Positions 3,589-27,224 of a DNA stretch of 30,043 bases are shown piece after piece (positions within the stretch are counted from its first letter, which is position 1; each line of letters begins with the position of its first letter). A model generated the notes under the pieces. That model saw nothing but the letters and a program-made list of their open reading frames with translations, was not told where the DNA came from and made no database searches. The stretch is from the NCBI GenBank assembly GCA_964576015.1, contig CAZNTO010000002.1:10081-40123 (forward strand), read 5' to 3'. The translations under genes were made by a program, and so were the position numbers. Source of the stretch: an uncultured Nitrososphaerota archaeon (lineage in GTDB: Archaea; Thermoproteota; Methanomethylicia; Methanomethylicales; Methanomethylicaceae).

Positions 3589-4461
3589 TTAACCTGGGAT
3601 GCCCTTCGTCTCAAGCACCGCAGCGAACTCCTCGAATGTGAGGCGCCCCCCGTTCTTTAGCTTCTCATTGGCCTTCTCCGCTATTTCTGATCGCTTGTTG
3701 ATTATGAGCTTCGCCTGCTCAGCGAGTGTCTCGGCCTTCTGCTTTATGACTTGGTTCCTGACAACCTTAAACTGAGCATGTGTGGCGAAGAGTTCGTCCT
3801 TGGACTTGCTTATGTCATCTCTTAGACTTTCCATTTCCGCCTTGATCTGCATAAGCTCTGTGACGAGGGTAGGGCGATCCTTGTAGCACTTCATGAGAGC
3901 CTCGTGGTAATTCTTAGACTCCTCAGCCAGGGCGAGGATCTCGCTGTGGACGACGTTGGCTTTCGCCTTCAGTTCGTCGAAGTTTGCTCGGGAACGCTCT
4001 ATCTCCTGGTCAATCTCCTTTACTTTCTTGAAATAGACGAGCCTCTTTTCCAGCTCGGAGATCTTCTGGACGGCTTTTCGGTCTTCGTGAAGCGAAAGGG
4101 TGGTCGTCTGGTAATTCCAGCTAATCTCCTTCAGCTGCCAAAGCAGCTCACTCTCGTTGTAATTCACAGCCGAGAGGACGGCCCCCTTCTTAGCCATCAA
4201 TTCCTTTATCTTCTCGGTGATCTCCGCCTTTGCCTTATGGAACTCATCACGTAGCGTTTTCTTTTCGGCGATGATCTTGTTCTTCTCATCCCTAGACGCC
4301 TTGTTGGTCACAGCGCTTTGCTGCAGCTCATTCAGCTTGTCAAGTATCTCTGACTTCCTCTTGTGAAGACGGTCTAGTTTTTTATAGTCAGCATCTATCT
4401 GATCTTGGATGGTATCAATCTGTCTTGATACAACACCAAGTTCTGACTGTCGATTCTCCAT
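3589..4461 (-). CDS. Archaeal coiled-coil protein, function unknown
   Basis: 290 aa, E/K/L-rich heptad pattern, QTTTLSLHEDRK core and C-terminal GGRLTFEEF, typical of a conserved archaeal coiled-coil family. Confidence 0.75.
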   Translation of the reverse strand: MENRQSELGVVSRQIDTIQDQIDADYKKLDRLHKRKSEILDKLNELQQSAVTNKASRDEKNKIIAEKKTLRDEFHKAKAEITEKIKELMAKKGAVLSAVNYNESELLWQLKEISWNYQTTTLSLHEDRKAVQKISELEKRLVYFKKVKEIDQEIERSRANFDELKAKANVVHSEILALAEESKNYHEALMKCYKDRPTLVTELMQIKAEMESLRDDISKSKDELFATHAQFKVVRNQVIKQKAETLAEQAKLIINKRSEIAEKANEKLKNGGRLTFEEFAAVLETKGIPG

Positions 4462-6305: not shown

Positions 6306-7444
6306 TCACATGGTTATATTGGTCAGCCCCGTGGATTCTGCCATTGCCATTACCCTCTTCCATTCTGAGTACGTCAGCCGCCTTGAGAGCTCGGGCACCT
6401 CTCCTGACCTCCAGTGCGGGGTGTACTGATCCATTAGGTTCACCCGAGTATCCCTCCCCAGCTCCTCAGAGATGAACTTCATTATACGCAATAGGCAACA
6501 CTCGAGGTGACCAGGGAGAACCAGAACGCGTATGAGTAGCTCCCCGTACATCTTGGCTGACCGGAGGTTCCTGGTCACAGTCCCCCAGTACCTCGGAACG
6601 TCTGAGATCCTCTTGGCGCAACTGTCCGAGCCGTATTTGAAGTCGATCTTGTAGACGTCTACAACCCCCCTCAAAAGCTCCGAGGCCTCCAAGCTGTAAT
6701 ACCCGTTGGTGTTGAAGAAGACTGGTGTGTTCTCCTTTTCGTAGAGCAGTACCCCCAGCCAGAACGGTATGTGGGGTATAGGATCCCCTCCCACCCAGTT
6801 CTGGTTCCTGCACACCCTCCTCCTAGCGTCGTCTATTAGCAGGGCAAGCTCCTTCTGGGAGAACACCGTCCCGCCCTCGAACTGTTGGCTTATCCCCCAG
6901 TTCTGGCAGTGGAGGCACCTGAAGTTGCAGCCCAAGCTAATTCGGCCGACCTCCGGTCGTATACCGTAAAGCTCGGAACTATCTCAGGCTCCTCGCCCAT
7001 GTGATCGAAGTAAGATGAGACCTTCATCTCCTCCCCAACCCTGCAGTAGCCCAGCTCCCCGCCGAGCCTGTTCTTCATGCACCTCCGCCCGCATAGCACG
7101 CATGATTCGAGGATTCTCCTCCCGAGGAGGTTTTTGAGGTGGAGTAGGGATCTCTTGGGAGGTTGCAGATCGCCAATCTTTAGCTTCCCTTTATCCAGGG
7201 ATTCCTCTAGCTTGGCCTCGCTCACCAACGCCCTTTTATGTATCATCCAGAGCGCTTCCGTAGAGGAGTCCTCAGAGTAGTCTGCTGGAACCATACGACT
7301 TATGAGGAACTTAGCGATGCGCCTATTCTTTACCACGTCAACATAGCGGGGTAGGGCGGAAAGCACCTTCGGGTCCTCCAGCGCGGACGCCGCGTCAGGA
7401 CGTATCAATACCCAGATGAGGATCACCTCCGGTTCCTGAATCAA
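6306..7444 (-). CDS. PflX-like (COG1313 type) radical SAM protein, split by a 20-nt BHB intron. Spliced form join(7444..6961,6940..6306), 372 aa from the TTG at 7444
   Basis: The 5' ORF has CVLCGRRC, GYCRVG and SYFDHMGEEPEIVPS. The 3' ORF has GCNFRCLHCQNWGISQ, WVGGDP, NTNGY, DFKYG and RVLVLPGHLECC. Removing 6941-6960 joins them in frame. Confidence 0.88.
6941..6960 (-). other. Candidate 20-nt mRNA intron with canonical bulge-helix-bulge splice motif
   Basis: Intron ACGACCGGAGGUCGGCCGAA. Central 4-bp helix CGGU/GCCG, 3-nt bulges AU^A and AA^U, inner stem CGACC/GGUCG, outer stem CCGAGC..UA/UAGCUUGG. Confidence 0.85.
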
Positions 7445-8451
7445 ACCATGACATTTATCTCTCCGCCGCAGAATGCGCAGTTCCTTCCCTTTAGGTTAAT
7501 TGACAGCACCTCGAAGCCCGATCGGTCAATCACGTTCTTCCCGCAGTGAGGGCAGTAGGTGTTCTCATACCGGTGGCCCATTACATTGCCAAGGTAGACA
7601 TACTTCAGGCCAATATCCTTCGATGCCTTCCAGAGCTCCTCCAAGTAGGAGATGCGAGGTGCACCTTGGCCGTCATACTTGTAGCTTGGGAAGAAACGGA
7701 GTATATGGAAGGGCGTCTCGTCACCCAGTTCGTCATGTATCCACTTCACGAGCTTTATGAAGGGCTCCTTTGTATCACCGCCTCCCGTGACTATCAAGTC
7801 CGTTATTTCGATGAAGATCTTCTTGCGCTTCATCTCGGCGAGAGCCTGGTAGATCGGCTCAAAGTTGGTAATCTTGCAAAAGTTTCTGTAGAAGTTGGGG
7901 TCGCCGCTCCCTTTGAAGTCGACGGTGGCAGCGTCCAGGTACCCATCTATCGTGTCTATTGCCTCCGGGGTCATGTAGCCGTTAGTGACGAACGTGTTGT
8001 ACAGTCCCTCCTTGTGGGCAAGTTTGGCGGTGTCGTAGGCGTACTCGAAGAATATGGTAGGCTCGGTGTAGGTGTAGCTGATGGAGCTGCATCCCATCGA
8101 CCTCGCCATGGCCACTATTCTCTCGGGGGGTACATCCTCACCAGTGATCCCCCTCTCCTGGCTTATGCTCCAGTTGTCACAGAAGATACACTTGAAGTTG
8201 CATCCAACTGTGGCGATCGAGAAGGCTGTCGTCCCAGGGTGGAAGTGGTATAGGGGTTTTTTCTCGATCGGATCCACTGCGTATGAGGCGGCCTTTCCAT
8301 AGACCAGTGTGTAGAGTGTGCCGCCCCGATTCTCCCGTACGGCGCAGACGCCCCTCTTCCCTGGCTGTATGGTACACCTCCAGCCGCAGAGGTTGCACTT
8401 TACGACATCGGAGCTAAGCCTATCGTATAGCATGGCCTCCAACCTGATCAC
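7441..8451 (-). CDS. amrS: AmmeMemoRadiSam system radical SAM enzyme
   Basis: N-terminal CNLCGWRC and GVCAVREN, then DPIEKKPLYHF, GCNFKCIFC, YTYTEPTIF and VTNGY, plus C-terminal TYCPHCG. Confidence 0.9.
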   Translation of the reverse strand: MIRLEAMLYDRLSSDVVKCNLCGWRCTIQPGKRGVCAVRENRGGTLYTLVYGKAASYAVDPIEKKPLYHFHPGTTAFSIATVGCNFKCIFCDNWSISQERGITGEDVPPERIVAMARSMGCSSISYTYTEPTIFFEYAYDTAKLAHKEGLYNTFVTNGYMTPEAIDTIDGYLDAATVDFKGSGDPNFYRNFCKITNFEPIYQALAEMKRKKIFIEITDLIVTGGGDTKEPFIKLVKWIHDELGDETPFHILRFFPSYKYDGQGAPRISYLEELWKASKDIGLKYVYLGNVMGHRYENTYCPHCGKNVIDRSGFEVLSINLKGRNCAFCGGEINVMV

Positions 8452-9375: not shown

Positions 9376-10425
9376 TTGGTTAGGCAGTCAAACCCTGAGA
9401 AGCTCCTCCTGTTACTGTCGGGAGAGCACCCCACCATACCCTACTCAGAGGTATGTGCCGTGCTCCAGACCGAGGGCGTAGAGTTCCACCAAGTCTCGCG
9501 GCATGATCAGGTCCTGATCATAGACACAGAGGGCGGGGCTGGCGAGGTGGTCAAGGGACGGGCGGCATATGTCATGGAGGGCGGGAGGTTCATTCTTCGA
9601 TCCGAACCCTCAGAGCTCATCTTCGAGAGGTGCTGCGGTGGCGCGGACTGGAGCTTTCTGGAGGGGAGGAGCTTTGGCGTCAAGGTGACGAGGGTCAAGG
9701 AGTACTGGAGGGAGATAGGCACCCAGGAGCTGCAGGGGATCGTGGGGGAGATCGTGAAGGGGGAGACCGACTCGAGGGTCGACCTTGAGAAGCCAGAGGT
9801 CTGGATACGCGGTGTGGTGACGGATGGAGGGATCTTCATCTACACGCTGGACTTCCTGACAGACAGGAGGGCGTTCGCAGCCAGGAGGCCGAAAACGAGG
9901 CCATACTTCCACCCCGGCGTGCTAGATCCCAAACTCTCGAGGGCGTTCGTCAACCTTTCGAGGGTCAAGAGTGGCGAGGTGTTTCTCGATCCATTCTGCG
10001 GCACGGGAGGGTTCCTGATAGAGGGTGCGCTCGTGGGGTGCCGCGTATGCGGCATGGACTTGGACATGAGGATGGTGCCTGGGGCGCGGAGGAATCTGAG
10101 GCACTACGGGCTTGAGGCCGACCTAATACACGGGGACGCGAGGAACCTCCCGCTTAGGACGGCTGACGGAATAGCGACAGACCCTCCCTACGGCAGGGGA
10201 ACGTCCACTAGGGGGGAGAATGTGAGGACAATCTTATCAGGGTTCTTCAGGGAAGCCCACAGTGTTCTTAGGGAGGGGGGCTACCTCTGCACTGCTGCAC
10301 CTATAGAATTGAATCCCTCCGAACTGGTGGAGAGGGCTGGCTTTAAGGTTCACGAGGAGCATAGCATGAGGGTTCATAAGTCCCTGACGAGGTCTATAGT
10401 AGTAGCTGAGAGGCAATCGAGATGA
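9376..10425 (+). CDS. trm11: THUMP-domain tRNA (guanine-10-N2) methyltransferase, TIGR01177/Trm11 type
   Basis: N-terminal LSGEHPT, THUMP region (RVDLEKPE), RPYFHPGVLDPKLSRAFVNL, SAM motif DPFCGTGG and TDPPYG. Confidence 0.9.
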   Translation: MVRQSNPEKLLLLLSGEHPTIPYSEVCAVLQTEGVEFHQVSRHDQVLIIDTEGGAGEVVKGRAAYVMEGGRFILRSEPSELIFERCCGGADWSFLEGRSFGVKVTRVKEYWREIGTQELQGIVGEIVKGETDSRVDLEKPEVWIRGVVTDGGIFIYTLDFLTDRRAFAARRPKTRPYFHPGVLDPKLSRAFVNLSRVKSGEVFLDPFCGTGGFLIEGALVGCRVCGMDLDMRMVPGARRNLRHYGLEADLIHGDARNLPLRTADGIATDPPYGRGTSTRGENVRTILSGFFREAHSVLREGGYLCTAAPIELNPSELVERAGFKVHEEHSMRVHKSLTRSIVVAERQSR

Positions 10426-11327
10426 AGGTGACGGTGCTCGGGTCTGCGGCAGGTGTTCCCACGGCGGAGAGGGGGCTTCCCGCAATTCTGGTAGAGGTGG
10501 AAGGGGAGCTCGTGCTCTTCGACTGCGGAGAGGGGACGCAGAGGCAGATGATGAAGGCAGGGTACGGCCTCTGCAGGAGGATGAGGATATTCATCACGCA
10601 TCTTCACGGCGACCACATCTTCGGGTTGCCGGGGATGATTCAGACAATGAACCTACTCAACAGAATACATCCGCTGGAGGTCTACGGACCGCCGGGTCTG
10701 AAGGAGTTCATAGAGGAGACCACAGTGGCCACGATGTCCGAGCCTGTATTCGACCTCTCGGTCTATGAGGTGAGCGAGGGGGAGGTATTCAGGGGGAAGA
10801 GGTACAGGATAGAGGGCGCCTGGGGGGACCACTCCAGGGCCACTATGGCATACCGCATGGTCGTGGGAGATAGCCCCGGCAGGTTCAGGCCAGGAAGGGC
10901 GAGGGCGCTTAGAGTTCCCGAGGGACCATTGTGGAGTGAGTTGAAGTCTGGGAGGAAGATCACATTAAGGGACGGGCAGGTGGTCGAGCCGAAGGATGTC
11001 TTAGGCGAGCCTGTCCCTGGGAAGATTCTAGTCTACAGCGGGGACACGAGATTCTCTCCGAACATCGTGAGGCTTGCTACGGGAGCAGATATGCTGATAC
11101 ATGAAGGGACGCTAGCCTCAACCTTAAAGGACTGGGCCGAGATGGAGGGGCACTCCACAACGGAGGTTGCTGCCCGCGTCGCAAAAGAGGCGAGGGTGAA
11201 GAGGCTGATCCTGACTCACATCAGCGCAAGGTATCCAGATGCCCGCGTGCTGGAGGACGAGGCGAGGAGGATCTTTTCGAGAACGGAGGTTGCCCAGGAC
11301 CTGAAGGTCTACGAGTTGAAGAGTTGA
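10422..11327 (+). CDS. rnz: Ribonuclease Z (tRNA 3' endonuclease)
   Basis: Motifs LGSAAGVP, FDCGEGTQRQ, THLHGDH, flexible arm GPLW, YSGDT, HEGT and THISARY. Confidence 0.96.
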   Translation: MKVTVLGSAAGVPTAERGLPAILVEVEGELVLFDCGEGTQRQMMKAGYGLCRRMRIFITHLHGDHIFGLPGMIQTMNLLNRIHPLEVYGPPGLKEFIEETTVATMSEPVFDLSVYEVSEGEVFRGKRYRIEGAWGDHSRATMAYRMVVGDSPGRFRPGRARALRVPEGPLWSELKSGRKITLRDGQVVEPKDVLGEPVPGKILVYSGDTRFSPNIVRLATGADMLIHEGTLASTLKDWAEMEGHSTTEVAARVAKEARVKRLILTHISARYPDARVLEDEARRIFSRTEVAQDLKVYELKS

Positions 11328-12079
11328 CGGGTCTTTATCAGCGACGACCTTGCATCTGCCAGGGTGTTGGCCTCGACAACCGCTGTGATCTTATCGAGGT
11401 TAAGGTTGGACCTCAGTAGTCCCCAGTCAATCGTACCAGCTCCAACAACCATGTGGTCATCGTTAGAGCCCCTATTGTCGTGAAGGTGGATGTGGATTAT
11501 CCTGTCCTTCATGAACTCCAAGAAAGGCTGCAACTGCGATACCGTGTTCGCGTGCCCCACGTCAAGGGTCATGTAGAGTGGTAGCCCCTCATTTGCCAGT
11601 ACCTGGAACTCCTCCACGGTCTGTAGAAAACACGGGGTGTTCACTGGCATGTTCTCCACTGTTACCGTTACGCCGAGATCCTCTCCATAGGCGATTATCT
11701 TCCGCAGGGACTCCCTGTTCAGGTCCCAGTTTATCTTTGGGATAAGATGCTCCAGCGGACTATGTGTGCCAGGGTGAACCACCACGAGCTCCGCCTCTAT
11801 CTCAGAGGCGTGCTGGATGGACTCCATTATCATGCGGGTCGAGAGTGCCCTGAAACGCGCGTTCGAGGCAGCAATATCCACGCCAAGGATCGGGGTGTGG
11901 ACAGTGTACAATATGTCGTTTGATCTTTTTATCTCCCTGAGCCTCTTCACCCTGCCCTTGTTGATTCTGTCCTTCCAGTCCTCGAGGATCTCCAGCACCT
12001 CAATTTTGAGGTCTAAGAGTTGATCTAAGGTCGAGTACGTCTTTCCGAACGTGCATAACGTGGAAATCCCGATTGGCAT
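11309..12079 (-). CDS. Sugar phosphate isomerase/epimerase family TIM-barrel protein (AP endonuclease 2 fold)
   Basis: Motifs VHTP, VVHPG, VENMP, LDVGHA and HIHLHDNRGSNDDH. Overlaps rnz convergently by 19 nt. Confidence 0.85.
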   Translation of the reverse strand: MPIGISTLCTFGKTYSTLDQLLDLKIEVLEILEDWKDRINKGRVKRLREIKRSNDILYTVHTPILGVDIAASNARFRALSTRMIMESIQHASEIEAELVVVHPGTHSPLEHLIPKINWDLNRESLRKIIAYGEDLGVTVTVENMPVNTPCFLQTVEEFQVLANEGLPLYMTLDVGHANTVSQLQPFLEFMKDRIIHIHLHDNRGSNDDHMVVGAGTIDWGLLRSNLNLDKITAVVEANTLADARSSLIKTRQLFNS

Positions 12080-12495
12080 AGCTCATCGACGGGTACGCCG
12101 TCTACTGTCCTTGTTGCGAGCCATTCTATTAATGACTTTGGATCATCTGCGGATACATGGAAGGTGATGGGACCCAGCGGGGACTCGCCCACCGGCATGC
12201 AGAAGGCGACGTGCCCTGCGAGGGCGACCTGCTTGTTTATGTAGAAGGTTATGGTGGAGCCCTCCACGCCCCTTAGCATGAGCTTCCTGGCTGCGTCCAA
12301 TGTCCTCTCCCTCCTCAACAGGGAGCGGAGCTTCGTGAGCAGGGACTCGTTGCCCTCCTGCACCAAATAGGTGTGCCTGCCCTGCGGCCACCTCTTGAAG
12401 GTGGTGGAGCCGGTGAGGTTGGATACAGCCGCCATTACCTTGGACTCATCCTCGGTGGGGTTCAGCTCTACCTCAACCAAGACCTTTGTCTCCAC
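12025..12495 (-). CDS. DUF54/UPF0201 family putative RNA-binding protein
   Basis: VELNPTEDESKVMAAVSNL, LRRERTLDAAR, FYINKQVALAGHVAF and ESPLGPI. Confidence 0.85.
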   Translation of the reverse strand: METKVLVEVELNPTEDESKVMAAVSNLTGSTTFKRWPQGRHTYLVQEGNESLLTKLRSLLRRERTLDAARKLMLRGVEGSTITFYINKQVALAGHVAFCMPVGESPLGPITFHVSADDPKSLIEWLATRTVDGVPVDELCQSGFPRYARSERRTRP

Positions 12496-13030
12496 GCCTT
12501 ATCCCCTCGAAGAACTTCTTGACGGATCTCTGCAGGTCCTCCACCGTCCCCTCATTTACAAAGACCTTGTTGGCGAGAGCTATCACGGAGCCGAGCCCTA
12601 CTTTCAGCTCCCTGAGATCCCGCTCCCTGAAGGTCTCGATATCCTTGGGATCATCAGGCCTCCCGCGCTTGAGGAGGCGTTCGAACCTCGTTTCGGGTGA
12701 GGCGTGAACCGCTATGAGGCAGATCTCGCTGTTCTTCTTGAAGTACATTAGTTCGTCCATGCTCCTTACGCCCTCTATGAGGGAGAGCCGCTCATTCCTA
12801 ATCCTCGCGAGGCACCTCTTAGCCACAACGTCGTTACCCTCCTCCCGTCTGAGCTTGAGCATGAGCTCTCCGAGGTTGGCCGGGGTCTTGGCGATCCCCT
12901 TGGCCTCAGCCTCCTCCCTTATAACATCGCCCATAGTGACTACTTTGAAGCCCGAGGACCTTGCAGTTTCGGAAATTATGGACTTCCCCGACCCCGGCAT
13001 GCCAGTTATGCAGAACAGCATGACCTTCAC
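12473..13030 (-). CDS. P-loop nucleotide kinase, dephospho-CoA-kinase-like (UPF0200 type)
   Basis: Motifs TGMPGSGKS, MGDVIREE, EGVRSMDE, HASPETRFERLLKRGRPDD and RDLRELKVG. Start GTG 13030 or ATG 13021. Confidence 0.85.
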   Translation of the reverse strand: MKVMLFCITGMPGSGKSIISETARSSGFKVVTMGDVIREEAEAKGIAKTPANLGELMLKLRREEGNDVVAKRCLARIRNERLSLIEGVRSMDELMYFKKNSEICLIAVHASPETRFERLLKRGRPDDPKDIETFRERDLRELKVGLGSVIALANKVFVNEGTVEDLQRSVKKFFEGIRRGDKGLG

Positions 13031-13087
13031 TATCCAAGAAATTAATTAGTACTATGCATATAACGATTTATCTGCTGGTGCTGTTTC

Positions 13088-13648
13088 ATGGAGGTCGTCA
13101 GGGCTTTTCTCGCGCTGGAGGTGGCCGAGGACGTGAAGGAGAGAATAATGGAACTGGAGGGGAAGATTAAGGCGAGCGGGGCGGATGTGAAGCTGGTGGA
13201 GCGGGAGAACCTCCACGTTACGATGAAGTTCCTGGGCGATGTAACTGCGGATGCGGTGGAAAGGGTTTACGAGGCTATGAAGACGATTAAGGAGGTCAAG
13301 TTCCAGCTGGAGGTCAAGGGCACGGGCGTCTTTCCCAATCCCCGCATGGTCCGTGTACTCTGGGTAGGGGCAGGAACTGGGGGAGAGAAGGTTGTCTCGA
13401 TATTCAGGCAGCTGGACTCTGAGCTGGTAATGAAGGGATTCCCGAGGGAGAGGGACTTTACCCCACACATCACTATAGGCAGGGTCAGGTCGCAGAGGAA
13501 CAAGGAAGATCTGCTGAGGGCTATCGATGAATATAGAGGCAGGATGTTCGGTACCACCGCTATCGATAAGATAGTTCTGAAGAAGAGTGTCCTGATGTCG
13601 AGCGGTCCGGTTTACTCGAACTTAAGGGAGGTAGAGCTTGGAGGATGA
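13088..13648 (+). CDS. thpR: RNA 2',3'-cyclic phosphodiesterase (2H family, 2'-5' RNA ligase-like)
   Basis: RAFLAL, the two 2H motifs HVTMKF and HITIGR, and KKSVL..GPVY. Confidence 0.93.
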   Translation: MEVVRAFLALEVAEDVKERIMELEGKIKASGADVKLVERENLHVTMKFLGDVTADAVERVYEAMKTIKEVKFQLEVKGTGVFPNPRMVRVLWVGAGTGGEKVVSIFRQLDSELVMKGFPRERDFTPHITIGRVRSQRNKEDLLRAIDEYRGRMFGTTAIDKIVLKKSVLMSSGPVYSNLREVELGG

Positions 13649-15042
13649 GCGCGGAGATTGAGAGGATAAGGGCAGAGGTGGCAGAGAGGGTCTCTCCGAA
13701 GGCCAAAGACCGCGCGGAGATAGAGAGGGTGCTACGGAAGGTATCTTCGAGGATAAAGAGGGAGGCGAAGAACCGGAAACTCCAAGTGAGGGTAGAGGTC
13801 GAGGGGTCGGTAGCAAAGGACACTTGGGTGGCCGCCGACAGGGAAGCCGATGTGTTCATAATATTCCCTCAAAGGACTAGCGGGGAGGTCGTGAGGGAGA
13901 CAGGGCTCAAACTCGCGAAGGCAGGCGCCGGCGAGTTGTGGAGGCTCGGCTACGCTGAGCACCCCTATGTTGAGGTCGAGATAGATGGTTGTAGGCTTGA
14001 CATAGTGCCGAGCGTTGAGATCCGCGACGGCGACAAGCCAATCACATCTGTGGACAGGACGCCGCTGCACACACGCTTCCTGCTTGACAAGTTGACCCCG
14101 AAGATGAAGAAGGACGTGAGGGTACTGAAGCAGTTCATGAAGGGCGTAGAAGTTTACGGGGCCGAGCTGAAGGTCGGCGGCTTCTCTGGGTACCTATGCG
14201 AGCTGCTTGTCCTCAACTATGGTAGCTTCGAGGGGGTGGTAAGGGCGGCAGCCGGGTGGAGGGATAAGACAGTCATTGACTATATGCACCACTACAAAGA
14301 GAGGGAGGCTGGAAAGGTCTTCGCCGCCCCCCTCGTCATAGTGGACCCAGTGGACAGGAGGAGAAACGCAGCCGCAGCGGTCACCCACCAGTCCTACTCC
14401 ACATTCATTGCCGCCTCGAGGTGGTTCCTCAGGCACCCTAGACTGGACTTCTTCTTCCCGAAGCCAGAGTCCACAACCTTCTCAGAGGTATCGAAGGCGA
14501 TAAAGGAAAGAGGAACTGCGGTCGCCGCTATCGCTGTAGGATGTCCCAACTTGCCCTCGGACATTCTTTGGGGGGAGATCCACAAGAGTCTGATCAGGAC
14601 TGTGGATATGCTGGATGAGCACAGCTTTAGGGTCAACGACTACATGGCATGGAGTGATGAGAAGGAGTCCGTGGTGTTCCTCATAGAGGTGGAGGGGAGG
14701 AGGGTCAGGGAGGGGCGGATCCACATGGGACCAAAGGTCTCATTTGTGGACGAGGCGGAAAGGTTCGTTAACAAATATCTGGACGGCAAGAATGTCCTCG
14801 CCGGACCTTACGTGAGAGAGGACCGCTGGTATGTGGAGCTGAAGAGGGATCACACCGACCTGAAGGCGCTGATCAAAGTGGGGTTTCCCTTGCTCAGGCT
14901 CAGCAAGGACATTATGGTGGAGGCAAAGAGGGGCTTCAAGGTCTTTGTTAACGATGAGCTAGCTACTCTATGCAGACGGAGGGAGGATCTCAAGATCACA
15001 CTGCTCAAGTTCGTCAGGAAGAGACCAGTATGGCTGAGGTAA
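13645..15042 (+). CDS. cca: Archaeal class I CCA-adding enzyme
   Basis: Motifs EGSVAKDTW, EADVF, YAEHPY, VDRTPLH, VYGAELKVGGFSGYLCELL and VDPVDRRRNAAAA. Confidence 0.96.
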   Translation: MSAEIERIRAEVAERVSPKAKDRAEIERVLRKVSSRIKREAKNRKLQVRVEVEGSVAKDTWVAADREADVFIIFPQRTSGEVVRETGLKLAKAGAGELWRLGYAEHPYVEVEIDGCRLDIVPSVEIRDGDKPITSVDRTPLHTRFLLDKLTPKMKKDVRVLKQFMKGVEVYGAELKVGGFSGYLCELLVLNYGSFEGVVRAAAGWRDKTVIDYMHHYKEREAGKVFAAPLVIVDPVDRRRNAAAAVTHQSYSTFIAASRWFLRHPRLDFFFPKPESTTFSEVSKAIKERGTAVAAIAVGCPNLPSDILWGEIHKSLIRTVDMLDEHSFRVNDYMAWSDEKESVVFLIEVEGRRVREGRIHMGPKVSFVDEAERFVNKYLDGKNVLAGPYVREDRWYVELKRDHTDLKALIKVGFPLLRLSKDIMVEAKRGFKVFVNDELATLCRRREDLKITLLKFVRKRPVWLR

Positions 15043-15773
15043 TCCCACTTGAGGACGAACGGCTGAAAAAACTCTTTTCATACCCCCGTTACTCCGAGGA
15101 ACACTACCAGAGAGTCGTGGAGGAGCTCATGGCTTTAGGGGTTAAGAGCATAGTATCTATAGGGAGGCTAGAGATGGACGACCTTCGGGTGGTGGGGAAG
15201 GGGTGCGTAGGGATAGTGGTAGCAGGCATACTTGGGCAGGAGAGGGTCGCCCTAAAAGTTCTGCGGGCAGATGCAAATAGGGCTTCTTTGATGGAAGAGG
15301 CGAGGCTCATGTCGGTGGCTAATGTGTGCAAGGTTGGGCCTAAGATCATTACCTCCAATGATAGCGTCATCGCAATGGAGTACGTAGACGGCAAATATCT
15401 CTCCAGATGGCTGGAGGATCCCCTTGTAACTGAGAAGGTGAGATACGTTGTCCGGGAACTGCTCATCCAGTGCTACAAACTGGACGAGGCTGGGCTCGAC
15501 CACGGGGAGCTCTCAGATGCGAAGAAGCATATCTTGATAGACGGGCGGGGGAGACCCTACATACTCGATTTCGAGACAGCGAGCATGAAAAGGAGGTGCA
15601 GGAACCTCGTCTCGATGCTTAGCTACCTATTCTTCAAGGAGTCAATCGCCGCCATCATTGGCAGGTACTTGTACTGGGATGGGGGCAGCCTCAGGGGCTT
15701 GATAAAGGTGTACAAAAATACACCCTCCAAGATTGCATATCAGGAGATCATGAAAGGGGTAGGACTAGACTGA
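15030..15773 (+). CDS. Archaeal Ser/Thr protein kinase (RIO/Bud32-like, COG2112 type)
   Basis: Motifs GKGCVGIV, VALKV, EARLM, MEYVDG, HGELS and LDFETA. ATG at 15030 preferred over 14970 because it overlaps the cca stop region. Confidence 0.85.
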   Translation: MAEVIPLEDERLKKLFSYPRYSEEHYQRVVEELMALGVKSIVSIGRLEMDDLRVVGKGCVGIVVAGILGQERVALKVLRADANRASLMEEARLMSVANVCKVGPKIITSNDSVIAMEYVDGKYLSRWLEDPLVTEKVRYVVRELLIQCYKLDEAGLDHGELSDAKKHILIDGRGRPYILDFETASMKRRCRNLVSMLSYLFFKESIAAIIGRYLYWDGGSLRGLIKVYKNTPSKIAYQEIMKGVGLD

Positions 15774-15960: not shown

Positions 15961-16170
15961 TAAAACCTTCTTTGGTTGCATAAAATGAGATGAACTGCCT
16001 ACTTAATGGCTGAATCGCTACATTGATGTATCCAAATCATAATTTTTAGTCAATGTCCGAGCCTTATCGATACTTTTTGATATTTTTGTTTGAAAAAATC
16101 TATAAGTATGGTGCCCCAATGTATTATCGAGGCCTCCCTTAGGTTGCAAGGCAACCCTCCACCCCATGCC

Positions 16171-16596
16171 ATGGAAGAGTTTGAACTGTACCCCAAAGTA
16201 TGTAGGCTCCTCTCCGATAGGGGCTATTCTACATACCAGAGTTTCCCGCAGGGTAGGTACAGCCCGTTCGAGGTAGACGTCCTAGGATTTAAGGCGGATT
16301 CGGAGGAGCTCTTCATGGTCGAGGTGAAGCTCTGTCACATCAATAAAGCCCTCCGCCAAGGCATGAGTCGACTGCCCTACTCCGACTATGTCTCTCTGGC
16401 ATTCCCCCAAGCCTATGCCGATTATGTATACAACAAATTCAAGCTATCGCTAAAGAGTAAAGGGTTCGGGCTCATCGCAATAGACGGTACAGCCAAGGAG
16501 ATAATTCCACCCAAAAGGTCGACCTCCCTTAAGGCTGTATTCAAGAGGATCCTCCTCAGGGATGTTTACAAGAGGTTTTTCATGCAACTAGTGTAA
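16171..16596 (+). CDS. Putative PD-(D/E)xK-fold nuclease-like protein
   Basis: MEEFELYPKVCRLLSDRGY, then EVDVLG...VEVKL...ALRQ...DYVSLA, resembling restriction-endonuclease-like folds. The ORF extends upstream to TTG 16090, so the start is uncertain. Confidence 0.6.
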   Translation: MEEFELYPKVCRLLSDRGYSTYQSFPQGRYSPFEVDVLGFKADSEELFMVEVKLCHINKALRQGMSRLPYSDYVSLAFPQAYADYVYNKFKLSLKSKGFGLIAIDGTAKEIIPPKRSTSLKAVFKRILLRDVYKRFFMQLV

Positions 16597-17771: not shown

Positions 17772-17871
17772 GCGGCCGTAGTCTAGCCTGGTCTAGGACG
17801 TCGGCCTTCCATGGACTTAATAGGTCTGAAGAACGCCGAGGACCCGGGTTCAACTCCCGGCGGCCGCACCA
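17772..17871 (+). tRNA. tRNA-Gly(TCC) with a 22-nt BHB intron at position 37/38 (17812-17833), CCA encoded
   Basis: Acceptor GCGGCCG/CGGCCGC, anticodon stem TCGGC/GCCGA, BHB with helix CTTC/GAAG and bulges CA^T and AA^C, T arm CCGGG/CCCGG, 3' ACCA. Confidence 0.95.
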
Positions 17872-21461: not shown

Positions 21462-23669
21462 TCAGTCGTAGTCCTCGATGGAGAGTTGTTTCGTCCCCCT
21501 CTTCGATTTTACCATTGACCACTCCTCCTTTGAGACGGTACCTCCCGCCTGCTCCTTGATCGACCTAATGGTCTCGGGGCCTATCGTAGGGATCCGGTTC
21601 AGCTCCGTTGGGGATGCCCTCCTCAGATCATCGATTGTCTTTAAGCCAGCGGAAAATAGAGCTCTAGCTCTCACCCTACCGATACCCCTGAGCGAGATAA
21701 GGGGGAGTAGCTCCTCTTTGATGCCATTCTCAACCCTTATCGAAAGGTTGAGGAGAGGTGCCAATGCCTCCTTGTAACCCAATAGCTTGGCTAGCTCGTG
21801 CGCTGCGTGGACGAGCCATTTCGCTGATTCCACGTATGAGTATATGTCGCCAGAGCCTACATCAAACCTCTCGACGATCCCGTCTTCTGGTGATTCCTCG
21901 ATCCAGTCCTTCAATAAGAGGGCGGTCTTGATCTCCTCAAGCAGTACCTCGTACTCAAGGCACTCATCCTCCGGCAGGTCGAATAGCAGCAGGTCAGATT
22001 TGGCCTCAAGGAACGCTGTAACTGCCTCCAGCTCCCGCTTCCTCAGGTAGAGCCGCGGCATATCAGGGGTGTGGCATATGAGTGTAAGGTAACTGACCGG
22101 GGGCATGCCAGACCTTCGCATCTTTAGACCGTTTCTGAGTATTACTGCAGACTTGGGGTCGATGTAGAGCTCGGCGACCCTCTTTCCCAGCGCGGTGGGT
22201 ATAAGTTTCATACCATCTGACTTTACCATCCCCTCGGAGGTCAGCATCTCCAGCGACTCCAGCACCGCGCTCCTGAAGGAGTTTATTCCATACTGATAGC
22301 CGCATAATGACCTCTCCAGATAGTCGAAGACATCCTCCTGCGAGTGCGCCAAGCCCATGGTTATGGTAGCGAGGATGTGAGACCTGAGGGAGGACGCCGC
22401 CCCCAGCTTCGACCACACCCTCTCGGGCTTTGACAGCACGTACTCCTCTAATAGGAAGTCCCGCTCAGCCTCGCTCCTCGCCAGCAGTATGGCCTCGCCG
22501 CTGGTATCGTACTTAGGCCTGCCGGCTCTCCCAGCCATTTGCTTCTCCTCAAGAACGGGTATATTGGTTTGGCCTATTCCGGCCTCGTAGCGCCTATAAT
22601 CATAGATCAGGACGCGCCTTGCGGGTAGGTTAACGCCTGACGCAAGAGTTGGGGTGGCACAAATGCACTTGATCATGAAAGAGCGGAATGCGTCCTCTAC
22701 AGCCTTACGCTGTTCGTAGGTAAGGCCAGCGTGGTGGAAGGCGACGCCACTGGCGACGGCCCTTGCAAGCCTTTCCGAGACGCGGGTCCTCTCCCCCATC
22801 TTCAGTATCTTGGATGAAAGATCAATTAGTTTCCTCTCCTCGCTCCGCTTGAGATGCTTCCTGATGGGCTCCGAAATCCTATTCGCAAGGGTTACGGCAG
22901 AGAGCCTGCTGCCTGTGAAAACGAGCATCTGGCCGCCGGATCTTATTACGTCCACGGCGAGGTTGGCGACCGGGTCCTTCTCCTCGCTCTCGATCTTCTT
23001 GTGCTGACCGTCCTTGAATACCACGGACTGTTGGAAGTATACGCCTTCCAGCAGGGGCACAGGTCTCCAGTCGCTGGTTATGGGCGTGGAGCTGAGCCAT
23101 CCCGCTATCTCGTCGGCGTTGCTTATGGTTGCACTCAGAGCGAGTATCTGCGCCTTCGGATTTAGGAGGCGGAATCCCGTAAGTAATGCCTCGAGGGTTG
23201 GCCCCCTTGACCCGTCGCCAAGCAGGTGGATTTCGTCTGCCACAATGAGCGAGAGGGAGTTGACCCAGCCGGGCCTGTGGCGAAATATGGAGTCTGCCTT
23301 CTCGTTGGTCGCGATGATTATGTCGTTCCTGCCAAGAGTAGGGTTGACGTAATCAAAGTCACCAGTGGAGAGGATTACCTTGACCCCGATCTTGGTGAAC
23401 TTTGAAAACTCTTCGTACTTCTCGGTGGCGAGAGCCTTCAAAGGGACTAGGTAGAGGACCTTCCCGCCCCTCTCCATAACATGCTTGAGCGCACAGATCT
23501 CGGCGACCATCGTTTTGCCCGAGGCTGTGGGGACTGCCAAGACGAGGTTCTTTCCTTCTAGAACCCCAGCCCTCACCGCCTCCTCCTGCGGCGGGTAGAG
23601 TTCAGTTATGCCCGATTCGCTGTAGAGCTTCTTAGCCTCCTCTCGTATTGGAAGCTCCTCGACCCTAAT
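21462..23669 (-). CDS. hel308: Hel308 (Ski2-like) SF2 DNA helicase. The reading frame extends 5' of the tracked GTG (23576) and the start is probably non-canonical (ATT 23669 or CTG 23687)
   Basis: Q-motif LYPPQ upstream of the tracked start, then PTASGKT, DEIH, ALSAT, HHAGL, TLASGVNLPA, QMAGRAGRP and HhH GIGRVRA. Confidence 0.93.
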   Translation of the reverse strand: MRVEELPIREEAKKLYSESGITELYPPQEEAVRAGVLEGKNLVLAVPTASGKTMVAEICALKHVMERGGKVLYLVPLKALATEKYEEFSKFTKIGVKVILSTGDFDYVNPTLGRNDIIIATNEKADSIFRHRPGWVNSLSLIVADEIHLLGDGSRGPTLEALLTGFRLLNPKAQILALSATISNADEIAGWLSSTPITSDWRPVPLLEGVYFQQSVVFKDGQHKKIESEEKDPVANLAVDVIRSGGQMLVFTGSRLSAVTLANRISEPIRKHLKRSEERKLIDLSSKILKMGERTRVSERLARAVASGVAFHHAGLTYEQRKAVEDAFRSFMIKCICATPTLASGVNLPARRVLIYDYRRYEAGIGQTNIPVLEEKQMAGRAGRPKYDTSGEAILLARSEAERDFLLEEYVLSKPERVWSKLGAASSLRSHILATITMGLAHSQEDVFDYLERSLCGYQYGINSFRSAVLESLEMLTSEGMVKSDGMKLIPTALGKRVAELYIDPKSAVILRNGLKMRRSGMPPVSYLTLICHTPDMPRLYLRKRELEAVTAFLEAKSDLLLFDLPEDECLEYEVLLEEIKTALLLKDWIEESPEDGIVERFDVGSGDIYSYVESAKWLVHAAHELAKLLGYKEALAPLLNLSIRVENGIKEELLPLISLRGIGRVRARALFSAGLKTIDDLRRASPTELNRIPTIGPETIRSIKEQAGGTVSKEEWSMVKSKRGTKQLSIEDYD

Positions 23670-23683
23670 ACTACGCCCTCCGA

Positions 23684-25756
23684 TCAGGTCTTCTTAATAA
23701 AGCCGGGTTTGGACTCGTAGATGATTCCGTCGTTCATCCACTTCGTGATGGTATCGTCGGTAAATTTCCTGAAGAATCCTTCGGTTTCGGCCCGTAAGAT
23801 GAAGGCCTCTCTCTTGATGGGCCCCATCTCGTTCTCCTTCTCCATGGTAATTAAAAGGTCAAAGAGAGCAGAGAGCTTGTCGCTCGCGGACTTGGGGCGG
23901 CCGACCATGATCATGTCAATGTCAGCTTTGCCCGTCGCCCGATCTACTCCAACCTGCATCAGGTATGACTTCATCAGCTTCGTCACTGGCTCCACGTCCT
24001 CCTTTCCAACCTCCTTCTTGAGGGCAAGCTTCGCCCTTGCCTCGGAGAGCCTGATGACAGCCTCGAGCTGTCTCATGGTGATCGGCACCGGTGAGTCGAC
24101 GCCCTCGTCCTTACCGCGCATCTCAAGGAAGAACTTCTCGATCCTCTCGCTCGCCTCTTCGCTCAGCTTCGGGGTGGCGTGTCTCCTTACGTAGTACAGG
24201 TACTTCTTCAGGATGAGGGGGTCGATCATTGATCCTTTCTCTATCTTGAGCCCCTGGTGAAGCCTCAGGATGTGCTCTGTCATGGCCCTGTCCCGCGCCT
24301 CCTCTGGCCTGTCTATCAGTATGAAGATTAGGTCGAACCTTGAGATTATGGTCACGGGGAGTTCTGAGATGTTCTCGGAGATGGATCTCTGCGGGACGTA
24401 CCTGCCGAAGGTCGGGTTCGCTGCGGCAAGTATACTGCTCCTTGCGTTGAGCTGGACAACTATGCCAGCCTTGGCTATGCTGATGGTCTGCTGCTCCATC
24501 GCTTCGTGTATGGCGGAGCGGTCCTCAGGGCGCATCTTGTCGATCTCGTCTATGCAGGCCACGCCCTTGTCCGCTATAACTAGGGCGCCTGCCTCTAGGA
24601 AGAACTCATTCGTATTCTTGTCGCGCATGACGGTGGCTGTCAGGCCTGCAGCTGTGGAACCCTTTCCCGAGGTGTAGACCCCCCTCGGCGCGACCCTGGC
24701 AATGTACTGGAGCAGCTGCGACTTCGCGGTTCCTGGGTCACCAACAAGGAGGATGTTTATGTCTCCCCTTATCTTTATGCCGTCGGGCATGGTCTTGGTG
24801 ACTCCGCCAGCCAGTTGGTATGCAATGGCCTCTTTGATCTCATCGTAGCCGTAGATGGATGGCGCAATGGATCCGAAGATCTTCTGGTAAAGTAGCGGGT
24901 CTTTAGCCAGTTCCTTTATCGCCTTCTCATCCTCAGGTGTTATATGAACCTCCTCGGCACCCTTCTCTGAGATCTCGAGGTGGTTAATCTCAACGCCGGT
25001 GGAGAAGGTGGCGAGTCTATTCCCCTTTGCAGTGAACTCCTGCTTCGCTTGAAGTGTGCCGACAAGGGAGATCCTGTCGCCTGGTCTCGATATATCCACG
25101 AGGTCTCCCTGCAGGACTCCCTCCACGGACCGGGGGAGGTGCCCTGGAGGTAGCTCCTCGGGCCTCTCCTGCAACGAAATCATCTGCCAGTCCACGAAGG
25201 TGGACTCCTCTGGTATTAACCTGAAGAAGCCCCTCCTTCCGCAGTCCTGATTTGAGCACTGTTGAGGTTGGGCTAGAAAGGTGCCAGTCTGATCTACCCT
25301 CATTTTCTCCCCGCACTTCGGGCACTGAAAGACTGCGACCTTCAGGTGTTGCTTTATCGTCGAGGACCTTGTGACTATGCCCTCTACCATGGTTAGTCTA
25401 CCCATATGGGTTGACTTTAGCGTACGGAGCGGTACCACTTCATCGAGCTTCCTGAGCCGGGCTTGGAAGTTTTTAACCTTTGTAGAGTACTGCATGTTCT
25501 CTACGCGCATGACATCGTAGATCGCTTCGTTTGCCTTTGATAACACCTCTGTCGGCTTATCTTTGAGATCTAAGGCAAGATCGGGGTCGAAGGAAATCAG
25601 GTCGTCGAAGTCGATTACAAGGGAAGTCATCCCCTGGGACGCCATCTGGGATATCGCTTCCCTGTACTTGTATGCTCCTTTCTTGTCCTGAAATGACTTT
25701 AGGAAGTTGACGAACCTATCTCGGTAATCCATGACCTCAGCAAGAGCCTCGACCAT
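23684..25756 (-). CDS. mcm: MCM replicative helicase, no intein
   Basis: C4 zinc finger CPKC...CSNQDC, GDPGTAKSQ, IDEIDKM, AAANP, SRFD and RQLE. ATG 25756 preferred because it follows the gins23 stop. Confidence 0.97.
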   Translation of the reverse strand: MVEALAEVMDYRDRFVNFLKSFQDKKGAYKYREAISQMASQGMTSLVIDFDDLISFDPDLALDLKDKPTEVLSKANEAIYDVMRVENMQYSTKVKNFQARLRKLDEVVPLRTLKSTHMGRLTMVEGIVTRSSTIKQHLKVAVFQCPKCGEKMRVDQTGTFLAQPQQCSNQDCGRRGFFRLIPEESTFVDWQMISLQERPEELPPGHLPRSVEGVLQGDLVDISRPGDRISLVGTLQAKQEFTAKGNRLATFSTGVEINHLEISEKGAEEVHITPEDEKAIKELAKDPLLYQKIFGSIAPSIYGYDEIKEAIAYQLAGGVTKTMPDGIKIRGDINILLVGDPGTAKSQLLQYIARVAPRGVYTSGKGSTAAGLTATVMRDKNTNEFFLEAGALVIADKGVACIDEIDKMRPEDRSAIHEAMEQQTISIAKAGIVVQLNARSSILAAANPTFGRYVPQRSISENISELPVTIISRFDLIFILIDRPEEARDRAMTEHILRLHQGLKIEKGSMIDPLILKKYLYYVRRHATPKLSEEASERIEKFFLEMRGKDEGVDSPVPITMRQLEAVIRLSEARAKLALKKEVGKEDVEPVTKLMKSYLMQVGVDRATGKADIDMIMVGRPKSASDKLSALFDLLITMEKENEMGPIKREAFILRAETEGFFRKFTDDTITKWMNDGIIYESKPGFIKKT

Positions 25757-25761
25757 AACAA

Positions 25762-26331
25762 TCACTTCGTTTCTTCGGTGAGGATCTTCTGCCTCCACTC
25801 CTCCATCTCCGCTCTCAGAGCGTTGAAGAGGCCTCTCTCTTCAGGCTCCAGCGTGTCGATAACGGTCTTGGCAGGGTTCCTCTCGAAGGACAGGTGGAGT
25901 ATTTTCTGCAGTCTGCAGTTAATAAGGTCTTGTGCCTTCATAAAGACCTGCCTCTGCTCGTTAAGAGTGGTCTGCGTAGGGTTCTGCCTGATGCTTGAGT
26001 TCAGCGTGAGGATTAGATCCCTGAGCTTGGGGTAGAAATGCGGGGGCAGTTGAGAGAGCATCTCGTTCCTCTCCTCCTTCCAGCAGAGTTTGTAAAGTTC
26101 GCTAGACCTCAGTTGCTGAGTCTCTTCGAACATCAGCTTCACCACTCCCTCCGCCTCCAAGGCCTTGGCTGCCCAGAGCGGAAGCTTAGCCTCGCTGCCC
26201 TCCACGAAGGCTTTCATCTGCAGGCCGCCGATCTTTGTGGGTGGAAGGGGCTTCTGGAATATTACGCCCACCGGCTCCTCCTCGTACAGGAATTCTGAAG
26301 TTTTTATATCCTCGGACGCCCTGCGAGACAT
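25762..26331 (-). CDS. gins23: GINS complex subunit, Gins23 type
   Basis: LPLWAAKALE, LPPHFY, LINCRLQKI and LEPEERGLF, immediately upstream of mcm. Confidence 0.85.
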   Translation of the reverse strand: MSRRASEDIKTSEFLYEEEPVGVIFQKPLPPTKIGGLQMKAFVEGSEAKLPLWAAKALEAEGVVKLMFEETQQLRSSELYKLCWKEERNEMLSQLPPHFYPKLRDLILTLNSSIRQNPTQTTLNEQRQVFMKAQDLINCRLQKILHLSFERNPAKTVIDTLEPEERGLFNALRAEMEEWRQKILTEETK

Positions 26332-26362
26332 ACTCAGATCTCTCTCCGATACTCCAATTAAG

Positions 26363-27076
26363 TTATTTGGTTTTCTTTAGGGCTCTAAGCGAGTTGTAGG
26401 CGGGTATCGCTATAGTTATCCCTACCAGGACCTGCCCTACATTAAAGGGAACCTCGGCCAAGGCTACGTAGCCTAGAACGAACTCTTCGTAGAGATAGTA
26501 GCCCAGCACCATGAAGAAGCCAGACACGGCGGCAGAAAGCACGAGCCACCCCACTTCCGGCCGGGCCACAAAGGAGATCAGGACTACTATAGCGCCGATT
26601 ATCAGTCCAATGAGAGCCCAGATCGCCTGCGTCATGCTAACGGTAAAGGATGCCCCAAAGCCAGGCAGACCTAATGAGATCTCAGACGACCCAACATAGT
26701 AGGTACTTCCAAGCAGGAAAACGGATGAGGAGAGGATCGCACCCACTATAAGTGAGAGCAGCCGCCAGTACCTAGGTTTTAGCTGGGGCTTTCTGGTGGC
26801 AAGAAGACCAAGTACACCCCCCTCTACCCCCTTTATCACCAAGGTTGCGGGCGCGAAGAAGAAGTACCCTAGTATTAAATCAGCTATCATGGATCCCACG
26901 CCTCCAGCAAAGGCACCAGCATAGGGACCCGCCAGGAGCGCGACTATGTAGACCATGGACTCCCCGATGTTGAAGTAGCCCCTTGTTGCGGGGACGTATA
27001 CAGTGAATACGAAGGTCGATACCGCCACCAGCCCAGTGTAGAAGGCTAAGAGCGGGATCGTTCTGGCATTGAGCAA
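26363..27076 (-). CDS. ECF transporter S component, substrate unknown
   Basis: GYFNIGESMVY, GGVGSMIADL and TLVIKGVEG motifs with multiple transmembrane segments. Confidence 0.85.
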   Translation of the reverse strand: MLNARTIPLLAFYTGLVAVSTFVFTVYVPATRGYFNIGESMVYIVALLAGPYAGAFAGGVGSMIADLILGYFFFAPATLVIKGVEGGVLGLLATRKPQLKPRYWRLLSLIVGAILSSSVFLLGSTYYVGSSEISLGLPGFGASFTVSMTQAIWALIGLIIGAIVVLISFVARPEVGWLVLSAAVSGFFMVLGYYLYEEFVLGYVALAEVPFNVGQVLVGITIAIPAYNSLRALKKTK

Positions 27077-27224
27077 GCGTTTTTTCCTCTGTAAATGTAG
27101 GTGGGCATACGCATAAAAACGTGTTTCTCGGCAAATTTTGCGGCTTCCCTCAGTTATTTTTGCGTTTAATAGGGGTTAAATATCTGACCGACTAGAAGGG
27201 AGATGAGAGAAGGAGGTTACACAG

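Follow-up and report, generated by a model that had tools for sequence, protein, structure and literature searches.

A putative bulge-helix-bulge intron within the coding sequence of a radical SAM gene, conserved across the archaeal class Methanomethylicia

The stretch of DNA analyzed here, hereafter the window, comprises 30,043 nucleotides (nt) of a contig (CAZNTO010000002.1) from a methanogen-related archaeon, and all coordinates below are window positions. The gene of interest lies on the minus strand, where two open reading frames (ORFs), 6890..7444 (184 amino acids, aa) and 6306..6935 (209 aa), adjoin in different frames around a 20-nt insert (6941-6960) that is very probably a genuine tRNA-type intron of the bulge-helix-bulge (BHB) kind, spliced out of an mRNA. 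Deleting the insert fuses the two ORFs into one open frame of 1119 nt, in agreement with the original prediction that removal of these 20 nt restores the frame, and the resulting protein is collinear with intronless homologs of about 363 aa. At the junction the spliced reading frame reads ...PSFTVFSLGCNFRCLHCQNW... / ...EPEIVPSFTVFSLGCNFRCLHCQNW..., and the predicted tryptic peptide of the spliced protein is VSSYFDHMGEEPEIVPSFTVFSLGCNFR. This protein matches Pfam PF04055 (Radical_SAM) with E = 6e-16 (59.5 bits versus a cut-off of 29.5 bits) over residues 161-318, a match that begins exactly at the junction, which places the insert at the domain boundary, at position 2 of the Pfam Radical_SAM domain.

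Judging from these matches, the host gene belongs to the Radical SAM superfamily and is predicted to be a PflX-like radical SAM gene. Homologs carry the database names "radical SAM protein" or "putative pyruvate formate lyase activating enzyme", while the spliced protein gave no specific family at or above cut-off in NCBIfam and no match among PDB sequences. The cluster motif CxxxCxxC is encoded by exon 2 as CNFRCLHC (6929-6906), and the unspliced mRNA encodes only the N-terminal domain and an out-of-frame tail that lacks the motif. It had been claimed that the unspliced frame stops before reaching the motif; the loss itself was correctly foreseen, but the stop codon (6890-6892) lies downstream of the motif nucleotides, and the motif is lost because it is out of frame. 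Similarly, the 372 aa first proposed for the product hold when counting from the first TTG (7444), whereas the orthologs indicate 366 aa from GTG 7426 or 363 aa from AUC 7417. The latter codon, which sits 8 nt past GGAGG, is most likely the start of the gene as judged by alignment, although the start stays uncertain. The aligned start codon (7417-7415, minus strand) stands directly before a conserved Trp, 8-9 nt past GGAGG; it is ATG or GTG in some orthologs, ATC in the window and in orthologs L001, L006 and L011-L017, and ATT in L018. L011 and L013-L017 lack an in-frame ATG, GTG or TTG over a stretch of more than 50 codons, and L018 over 27 codons. This pattern suggests initiation at AUC/AUU and a 363-aa product.

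The minus-strand letters at 6976-6932 are CCGAGCTTTACGGTATACGACCGGAGGTCGGCCGAATTAGCTTGG, and the corresponding mRNA, divided by structural element (Table 1), reads CCGAGC UU UA CGGU AUA CGACC GGA GGUCG GCCG AAU UA GCUUGG. The BHB architecture originally described for this 45-mer agrees with the sequence and is its minimum-free-energy fold, at -20.2 kcal/mol, in which AAU(U) is left unpaired on the 3' side; the fold is retained in a 57-nt context (z = -3.1 versus shuffles) and in a 111-nt context too. Within this motif the intron would start with base 3 of the 5' bulge, take in the whole inner stem-loop and the GCCG strand of the central helix, and end with base 2 of the 3' bulge. For the intron of the archaeal gene cbf5, the rule stated is a cut between bulge residues 2 and 3 (PMC2738675). 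Applied here, this rule joins U and UU into a Phe codon within the junction TVFS, and moving the cuts by 1 nt in either direction puts Tyr or Ile, as read from the sequence, in place of the junction Phe. Even with three mismatches allowed, the window contains the intron sequence a single time, and an origin from a repeat or mobile element was rejected on this ground.

Table 1. Features of the window and the basis on which each was assigned
Feature	Position	Strand	Basis or remark
Complete BHB motif	6932..6976	-	minimum-free-energy folds, RNAalifold consensus of 25 orthologs, pair counts
Outer exon helix	6976-6970 with 6938-6932	-	part of BHB motif
Central 4-bp helix CGGU/GCCG	6966-6963 with 6946-6943	-	5'-exon bases pair with intron bases
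5' bulge AUA	6962-6960	-	3 nt
3' bulge AAU	6942-6940	-	3 nt; opposite strand to 5' bulge
Inner 5-bp stem CGACC/GGUCG	6959-6955 with 6951-6947; loop GGA 6954-6952	-	
Putative BHB intron ACGACCGGAGGUCGGCCGAA, 20 nt	6941..6960	-	removal restores frame and conserved Phe
Exon 1, N-terminal Cys-rich domain, ends ...ACG GUA U	6961..7426	-	ORF 6890..7444; tblastn collinearity with orthologs, residues 10-161
Exon 2, radical SAM core, begins UU AGC UUG GGC UGC	6306..6940	-	ORF 6306..6935; stop codon 6308-6306
amrS, intronless paralog, AmmeMemoRadiSam system radical SAM enzyme	7441..8451	-	NCBIfam TIGR04337, 290 bits, above cut-off
tRNA-Gly(UCC), 22-nt canonical BHB intron at 37/38	17772..17871, intron ~17812-17833	+	ARAGORN intron mode; scanner match 17806; Rfam tRNA
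THUMP-domain methyltransferase	9376-10425		
tRNase Z-like metallo-beta-lactamase	10422-11327		
LigT / 2'-5' RNA ligase-like phosphoesterase	13088-13648		
CCA-adding enzyme	13645-15042		
Hel308-like helicase	21462-23576		
MCM	23684-25798		
GINS subunit	25762-26331		
RFC small subunit	27225-28208		
RFC large subunit	28205-29401		

A mechanism may be proposed on the model of the archaeal tRNA, rRNA and cbf5 pathway (PMC2738675, PMC7714728, PMC10485636). In the pre-mRNA, the CGGU at the end of exon 1 would pair with GCCG of the intron to form the 4-bp central helix, the 3-nt bulges on its two sides being bordered by the intron stem-loop and a helix between exon 1 and exon 2. EndA, the tRNA splicing endonuclease, would then cut between bases 2 and 3 of each bulge, after U6961 and after A6941, and an RtcB-type ligase would join ...ACG GUA U to UU AGC..., the 20-nt intron being released, probably as a circle. 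Ligation would create the Phe codon across the junction and yield an mRNA for an enzyme of 363-366 aa.

Several points weigh against this reading. BHB-like motifs are common by chance: a loose BHB scanner (set to a helix of 4 bp, two bulges of 3 nt, at least 5 bp of inner and 2 bp of outer helix, and an intron of 11-120 nt) found 83 matches in the window compared with 80 +/- 10 in dinucleotide shuffles, so the motif alone is not significant. Other short scanner matches (e.g., +3785, +21592, -25145) lie within or antisense to uninterrupted ORFs and were treated as chance. A 71-nt context gives a different minimum-free-energy fold. Beside the 3' bulge the helix is weak, consisting of one invariant A-U pair, a 2-nt bulge and then the outer helix, and the motif may need a broad-specificity endonuclease; going by published enzyme specificities (PMC6379350), an enzyme of this type would handle such a near-canonical motif most easily, and an (alpha-beta)2 or epsilon2 type is expected for the lineage. 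Neither endA nor rtcB is present in the window, the rest of the genome and the lineage not having been searched for either gene. Finally, the cleavage, the ligation and the identities of the enzymes are deduced. With regard to chance, the scanner count corresponds to no more than about 1e-5 per given position and length, and both are set here independently by protein homology. The case rests on comparison, and every comparative check set out in the original prediction turned out in its favor. What has been observed directly is the structure, the exact recovery of the frame and of the junction residue, the conservation of the motif, covariation in its helices and purifying selection on the gene.

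A search of 5.8 billion proteins with the spliced protein gave 3070 matches, of which the best 120 were examined. The matches are thousands of proteins of about 363 aa, mostly from Bathyarchaeia, with about 50% identity over 97% of the query. Among the best 120, full-length matches are all at most 53% identical, and identities above 53% are confined to 209-aa fragments, namely the window's own and that of P0023 (82%). P0023 comes from four JGI metagenome contigs that share the gene order of the window and have a 31-nt insert at the same nucleotide, in which the BHB core is unchanged while the inner stem differs. Among GTDB species genomes, a scan found 28 loci, 22 of the Methanomethylicia/Verstraetearchaeota type and six from Bathyarchaeia. 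The insert is present at the same nucleotide in all 22 of the former (57-85% aa identity), with lengths of 20, 21, 22, 23, 24, 31, and 33 nt, and in none of the six Bathyarchaeia orthologs. Complete genomes that bear it include those of Candidatus (Ca.) Methanosuratincola verstraetei LCB70 (predicted intron of 22 nt, ~CP186953.1:1089657-1089678) and M. petrocarbonis LWZ-6 (23 nt, ~CP130488.1:1135032-1135054, complement).

Scanning metagenomes by the intron pattern gave 23 stretches, 18 of which were the same gene and added 34-nt variants, so that the overall insert lengths are 20, 21, 22, 23, 24, 31, 33, and 34 nt and fall into all classes modulo 3. None of these 23 stretches has the same intron in another gene, and five of them (L037, L041, L043, L053, and L056) were set aside as unrelated chance matches. 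The junction region is identical to that of the window in L005, an independent Logan assembly, and in L034 and L035 from metagenomes; the identical insert in independent assemblies excludes the assembly artefact against which the original prediction had to be guarded. The putative intron is conserved across the whole archaeal class sampled, Methanomethylicia (Verstraetearchaeota).

An RNA alignment was built from 25 distinct intron-bearing sequences, in which ACGGUAU-R-CG...CG-GCCG-AR-UUAG is invariant. The two 3-nt bulges and the 4-bp helix are present in 25/25, the RNAalifold consensus has the same architecture, and every aligned sequence adopts it when folded alone; counting all intron-bearing orthologs, the BHB geometry is kept in about 29 distinct sequences. 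On the named structure, standard pairs fill 89% of cells, with the inner helix 95% paired, and when, as a control, the 3' partner is moved by 1-3 columns, the paired cells drop to 10-55%. The central helix shows no variation at all, and three pairs of the inner helix have changed on both sides (GC 13/AU 12; CG 14/AU 9/UA 1/GU 1; UA/CG/UG), as expected of a maintained BHB; the observed covariation score was reached by 0 of 500 shuffles. The outer exon-exon helix is 5-8 bp long and interrupted by a 2-nt bulge, is 80% paired, and shifts in register among orthologs. The outer UA/UA pair that had been part of the predicted motif did not survive comparison, its first base being C in about half of the orthologs (TTC instead of TTT). 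The motif is, as judged from these alignments, near-canonical rather than a strict BHB.

Splicing in all orthologs would yield ...PSFTVFS(L/S)GCN... with Phe as the junction codon, and the intronless Bathyarchaeia orthologs, where such a reading had been anticipated, have T-V/I-F-S with Phe encoded by TTC. The spliced ORFs are open in every copy, complete copies being about 363-394 aa long and mostly 363-366 aa, and unspliced frames hit a stop 2-27 codons past the junction. Four independent variants of the insert (21, 24, 33, and 33 nt) are in frame, and each has an in-frame TGA or TAG; therefore, no ortholog could read through an unspliced insert. These stops may be due to chance (about 1% by a crude estimate) or to selection against read-through. 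The in-frame variants are found in L006/L042/L054 (33 nt), L007 (24 nt), L008/L044/L045 (21 nt), and L030/L039 (33 nt).

Against the two closest relatives (L001 and L006), the ratio of nonsynonymous to synonymous substitution rates (dN/dS) comes to 0.14-0.15 in the upstream half of the gene and 0.14-0.17 in the downstream half; with more distant orthologs, dS reaches saturation. A dN/dS of about 0.15 past the junction indicates translation of the downstream half in the frame that splicing creates, and the saturation of dS between clades indicates that the arrangement is old; with both halves constrained and the spliced ORFs open, the gene is not decaying, as the intron reading had required. 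The exons also bear marks of selection at the RNA level. Of the 172 codon columns that are both conserved and degenerate in the 24 intron-bearing sequences compared, only four are without synonymous variation, and three of these four are the consecutive splice-site codons ACG, GUA, and U + UU, the ones forming the central helix and the 5' bulge. At the ACG and GUA positions, intronless orthologs have ACT/ACA/ACC and GTG/GTA/ATA, respectively.

Other explanations have to account for the same observations. Two ORFs are called in every genome, both halves are under purifying selection, and the insert sits at a domain boundary, as might be expected if the gene were split, its N-terminal Cys-rich part and its C-terminal radical SAM core being translated as separate proteins that assemble without any splicing. 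However, the downstream half has neither a conserved start codon nor a conserved ribosome-binding site (about half of the orthologs have CTG where the window has TTG 6935), and the first Cys of the cluster motif comes just four codons past the junction. A split gene would also leave the invariant BHB core, the exon-intron pairing and the frozen synonymous sites unexplained, and we consider it highly improbable. Less probable still is translational recoding, in which the mRNA is never spliced and ribosomes bypass the insert, in the manner of T4 gene 60, or shift frame. Although the insert resembles bypass elements in being short and having a stable stem-loop, its lengths of 20-34 nt occupy all classes modulo 3, and no single +1 or -1 shift fits all orthologs. 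There are also no matched take-off and landing codons, neither GUA nor ACG being repeated at the 3' end of the insert (...GCCGARUUAGC) in any ortholog, and what is conserved is precisely the set of BHB elements, which a bypass model does not predict.

EndA might also cut the BHB and leave the exons unligated, so that the motif would limit expression as a signal for mRNA decay or processing, much like the decay initiated by the tRNA endonuclease in yeast. Such cutting of mRNAs with no subsequent ligation is known from yeast (PMC10485636), but here it would make the downstream frame untranslatable, which is at odds with the strong conservation of that frame as spliced and with the exact rebuilding of a conserved Phe codon at the junction; we regard this as more improbable than either of the foregoing. 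The least credible alternative, a frameshifted pseudogene or a sequencing or assembly artefact, is effectively refuted. One genome alone does look like a 20-nt frameshifting insertion, yet more than 25 lineages from independent assemblies share the insert and its site, dN/dS stays at about 0.15 past the "frameshift" with no stops in any spliced ORF, and the saturated dS between clades makes the arrangement ancient.

If a spliced BHB intron is accepted, it is conceivable, though in our view unlikely, that it acts as a conserved expression gate through which one gene gives two products. In that case the unspliced mRNA would encode a stand-alone N-terminal Cys-rich domain and the spliced mRNA the full radical SAM enzyme, with the ratio of products set by splicing-endonuclease activity, which would make it an archaeal analogue of regulated splicing of the HAC1/XBP1 type. 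The absence of intron loss in the sampled lineages, the site at the domain boundary and the stops in the in-frame variants are consistent with such a gate without proving it.

The window as a whole (G+C 53%) is an ordinary archaeal chromosomal segment. The upstream neighbor of the intron-bearing gene is amrS, the end of which abuts or overlaps its start, and the two genes are probably co-transcribed. On the 3' side follow a zinc-ribbon protein, a protein with a molybdopterin-binding domain (MoCF_biosynth) and a GPN-loop GTPase, and this gene order is common to the relatives L001, L002, and L005 and the P0023 contigs. Another BHB intron, that of tRNA-Gly, lies 11 kb from the radical SAM intron; it is canonical and in the same window, and would imply BHB splicing machinery in the host. 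The cbf5 cut rule fits this tRNA intron to within 1 nt of the ARAGORN boundaries. In its default mode ARAGORN called a 100-nt tRNA-Trp(CCA) at the same position (17772-17871), which was rejected as a miscall on the basis of the intron mode and the BHB geometry, and Rfam at the gathering threshold gave two tRNAs only in the window. RNA-processing genes are clustered at 9376-15042, with the two tRNA genes just downstream, and replication genes at 21462-29401 (Table 1). At E <= 1e-5, Pfam offers no match for three sizeable ORFs, 3589-4461 (minus strand, 290 aa), 14970-15773 (plus strand, 267 aa) and 16090-16596 (plus strand, 168 aa); the counterpart of the first in relatives is assigned to PF23435 (DUF7121) in precomputed annotations.

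Since 2002, the intron in cbf5 has been the only documented BHB intron interrupting an archaeal coding sequence. Besides their own case in a 5' untranslated region (5' UTR), Schwarz et al. (2020, PMC7714728) named cbf5 as the sole further BHB intron reported, and reviews up to 2023 put the number of archaeal mRNA substrates at two, cbf5 and the HVO_1309 5' UTR, and expect more (PMC7714728, PMC10485636). In a literature search that fell short of all journals, we found no report of such an intron for Verstraetearchaeota, Methanomethylicia, Methanosuratincola or a radical SAM gene. On present evidence, the radical SAM intron would be a second family of coding-sequence BHB introns, independent of cbf5, and mRNA splicing by the tRNA endonuclease would not be a one-off, given a different gene in a different class. 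It would also offer a compact, near-canonical BHB substrate of 20-34 nt. M. petrocarbonis LWZ-6, an intron-bearing isolate, is now in pure culture (PMC12244365), which makes the intron directly testable. In every Methanomethylicia genome the gene appears as two separate ORF calls or would be labeled a pseudogene with a frameshift, and the mis-annotation foreseen in the original prediction is borne out by gene callers in public data, which split it; therefore, archaeal annotation pipelines should test split ORFs for BHB motifs.

Among known systems, the cbf5 intron of Desulfurococcales and Sulfolobales (Watanabe et al., 2002; Yokobori et al., 2009, PMC2738675) is likewise a BHB-type intron within an archaeal coding sequence in Thermoproteota/TACK, with the same predicted cut rule. 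It is similar also in its clade-wide conservation, with the BHB-forming bases fixed and the interior variable, and in causing gene mis-prediction. By contrast, its host is a pseudouridine synthase gene rather than a PflX-like radical SAM gene, the class here is Methanomethylicia, and the radical SAM intron shows no lineage-specific loss in the sample. Most cbf5 motifs are unconventional or relaxed, whereas the radical SAM BHB is close to canonical; and the splicing of cbf5 is backed by cDNA and by cleavage in vitro, while that of the intron described here is predicted from sequence. Descent from the cbf5 intron was ruled out by the radical SAM host gene and the occurrence in Methanomethylicia, the likeness being one of mechanism.

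The BHB intron in the 5' UTR of HVO_1309 in Haloferax volcanii (Schwarz et al., 2020, PMC7714728) is, as predicted for the radical SAM intron, an mRNA substrate of the archaeal splicing endonuclease, outside its tRNA and rRNA targets. However, it lies outside the reading frame, which stays intact, belongs to a euryarchaeon with an alpha2-type enzyme, and has been experimentally validated. Canonical archaeal pre-tRNA introns share the hBHBh' layout, with two 3-nt bulges around a 4-bp central helix made of 5'-exon bases and intron bases, and are of comparable size (22 nt in the tRNA-Gly of the window versus 20 nt here). In place of the anticodon stem, the radical SAM motif has an outer helix that consists of codons (CCN AGC U / A GCY UGG G) with a 2-nt bulge, and its host is an mRNA. 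A more distant parallel is the IRE1-dependent splicing of HAC1/XBP1, which, like the splicing proposed here, is independent of the spliceosome and removes a short frame-changing intron by an endonuclease together with RtcB or a tRNA ligase, so that spliced and unspliced mRNAs differ in the C-termini they encode. There, however, the nuclease is unrelated, the cut sites are paired stem-loops rather than a BHB, and splicing is regulated by stress.

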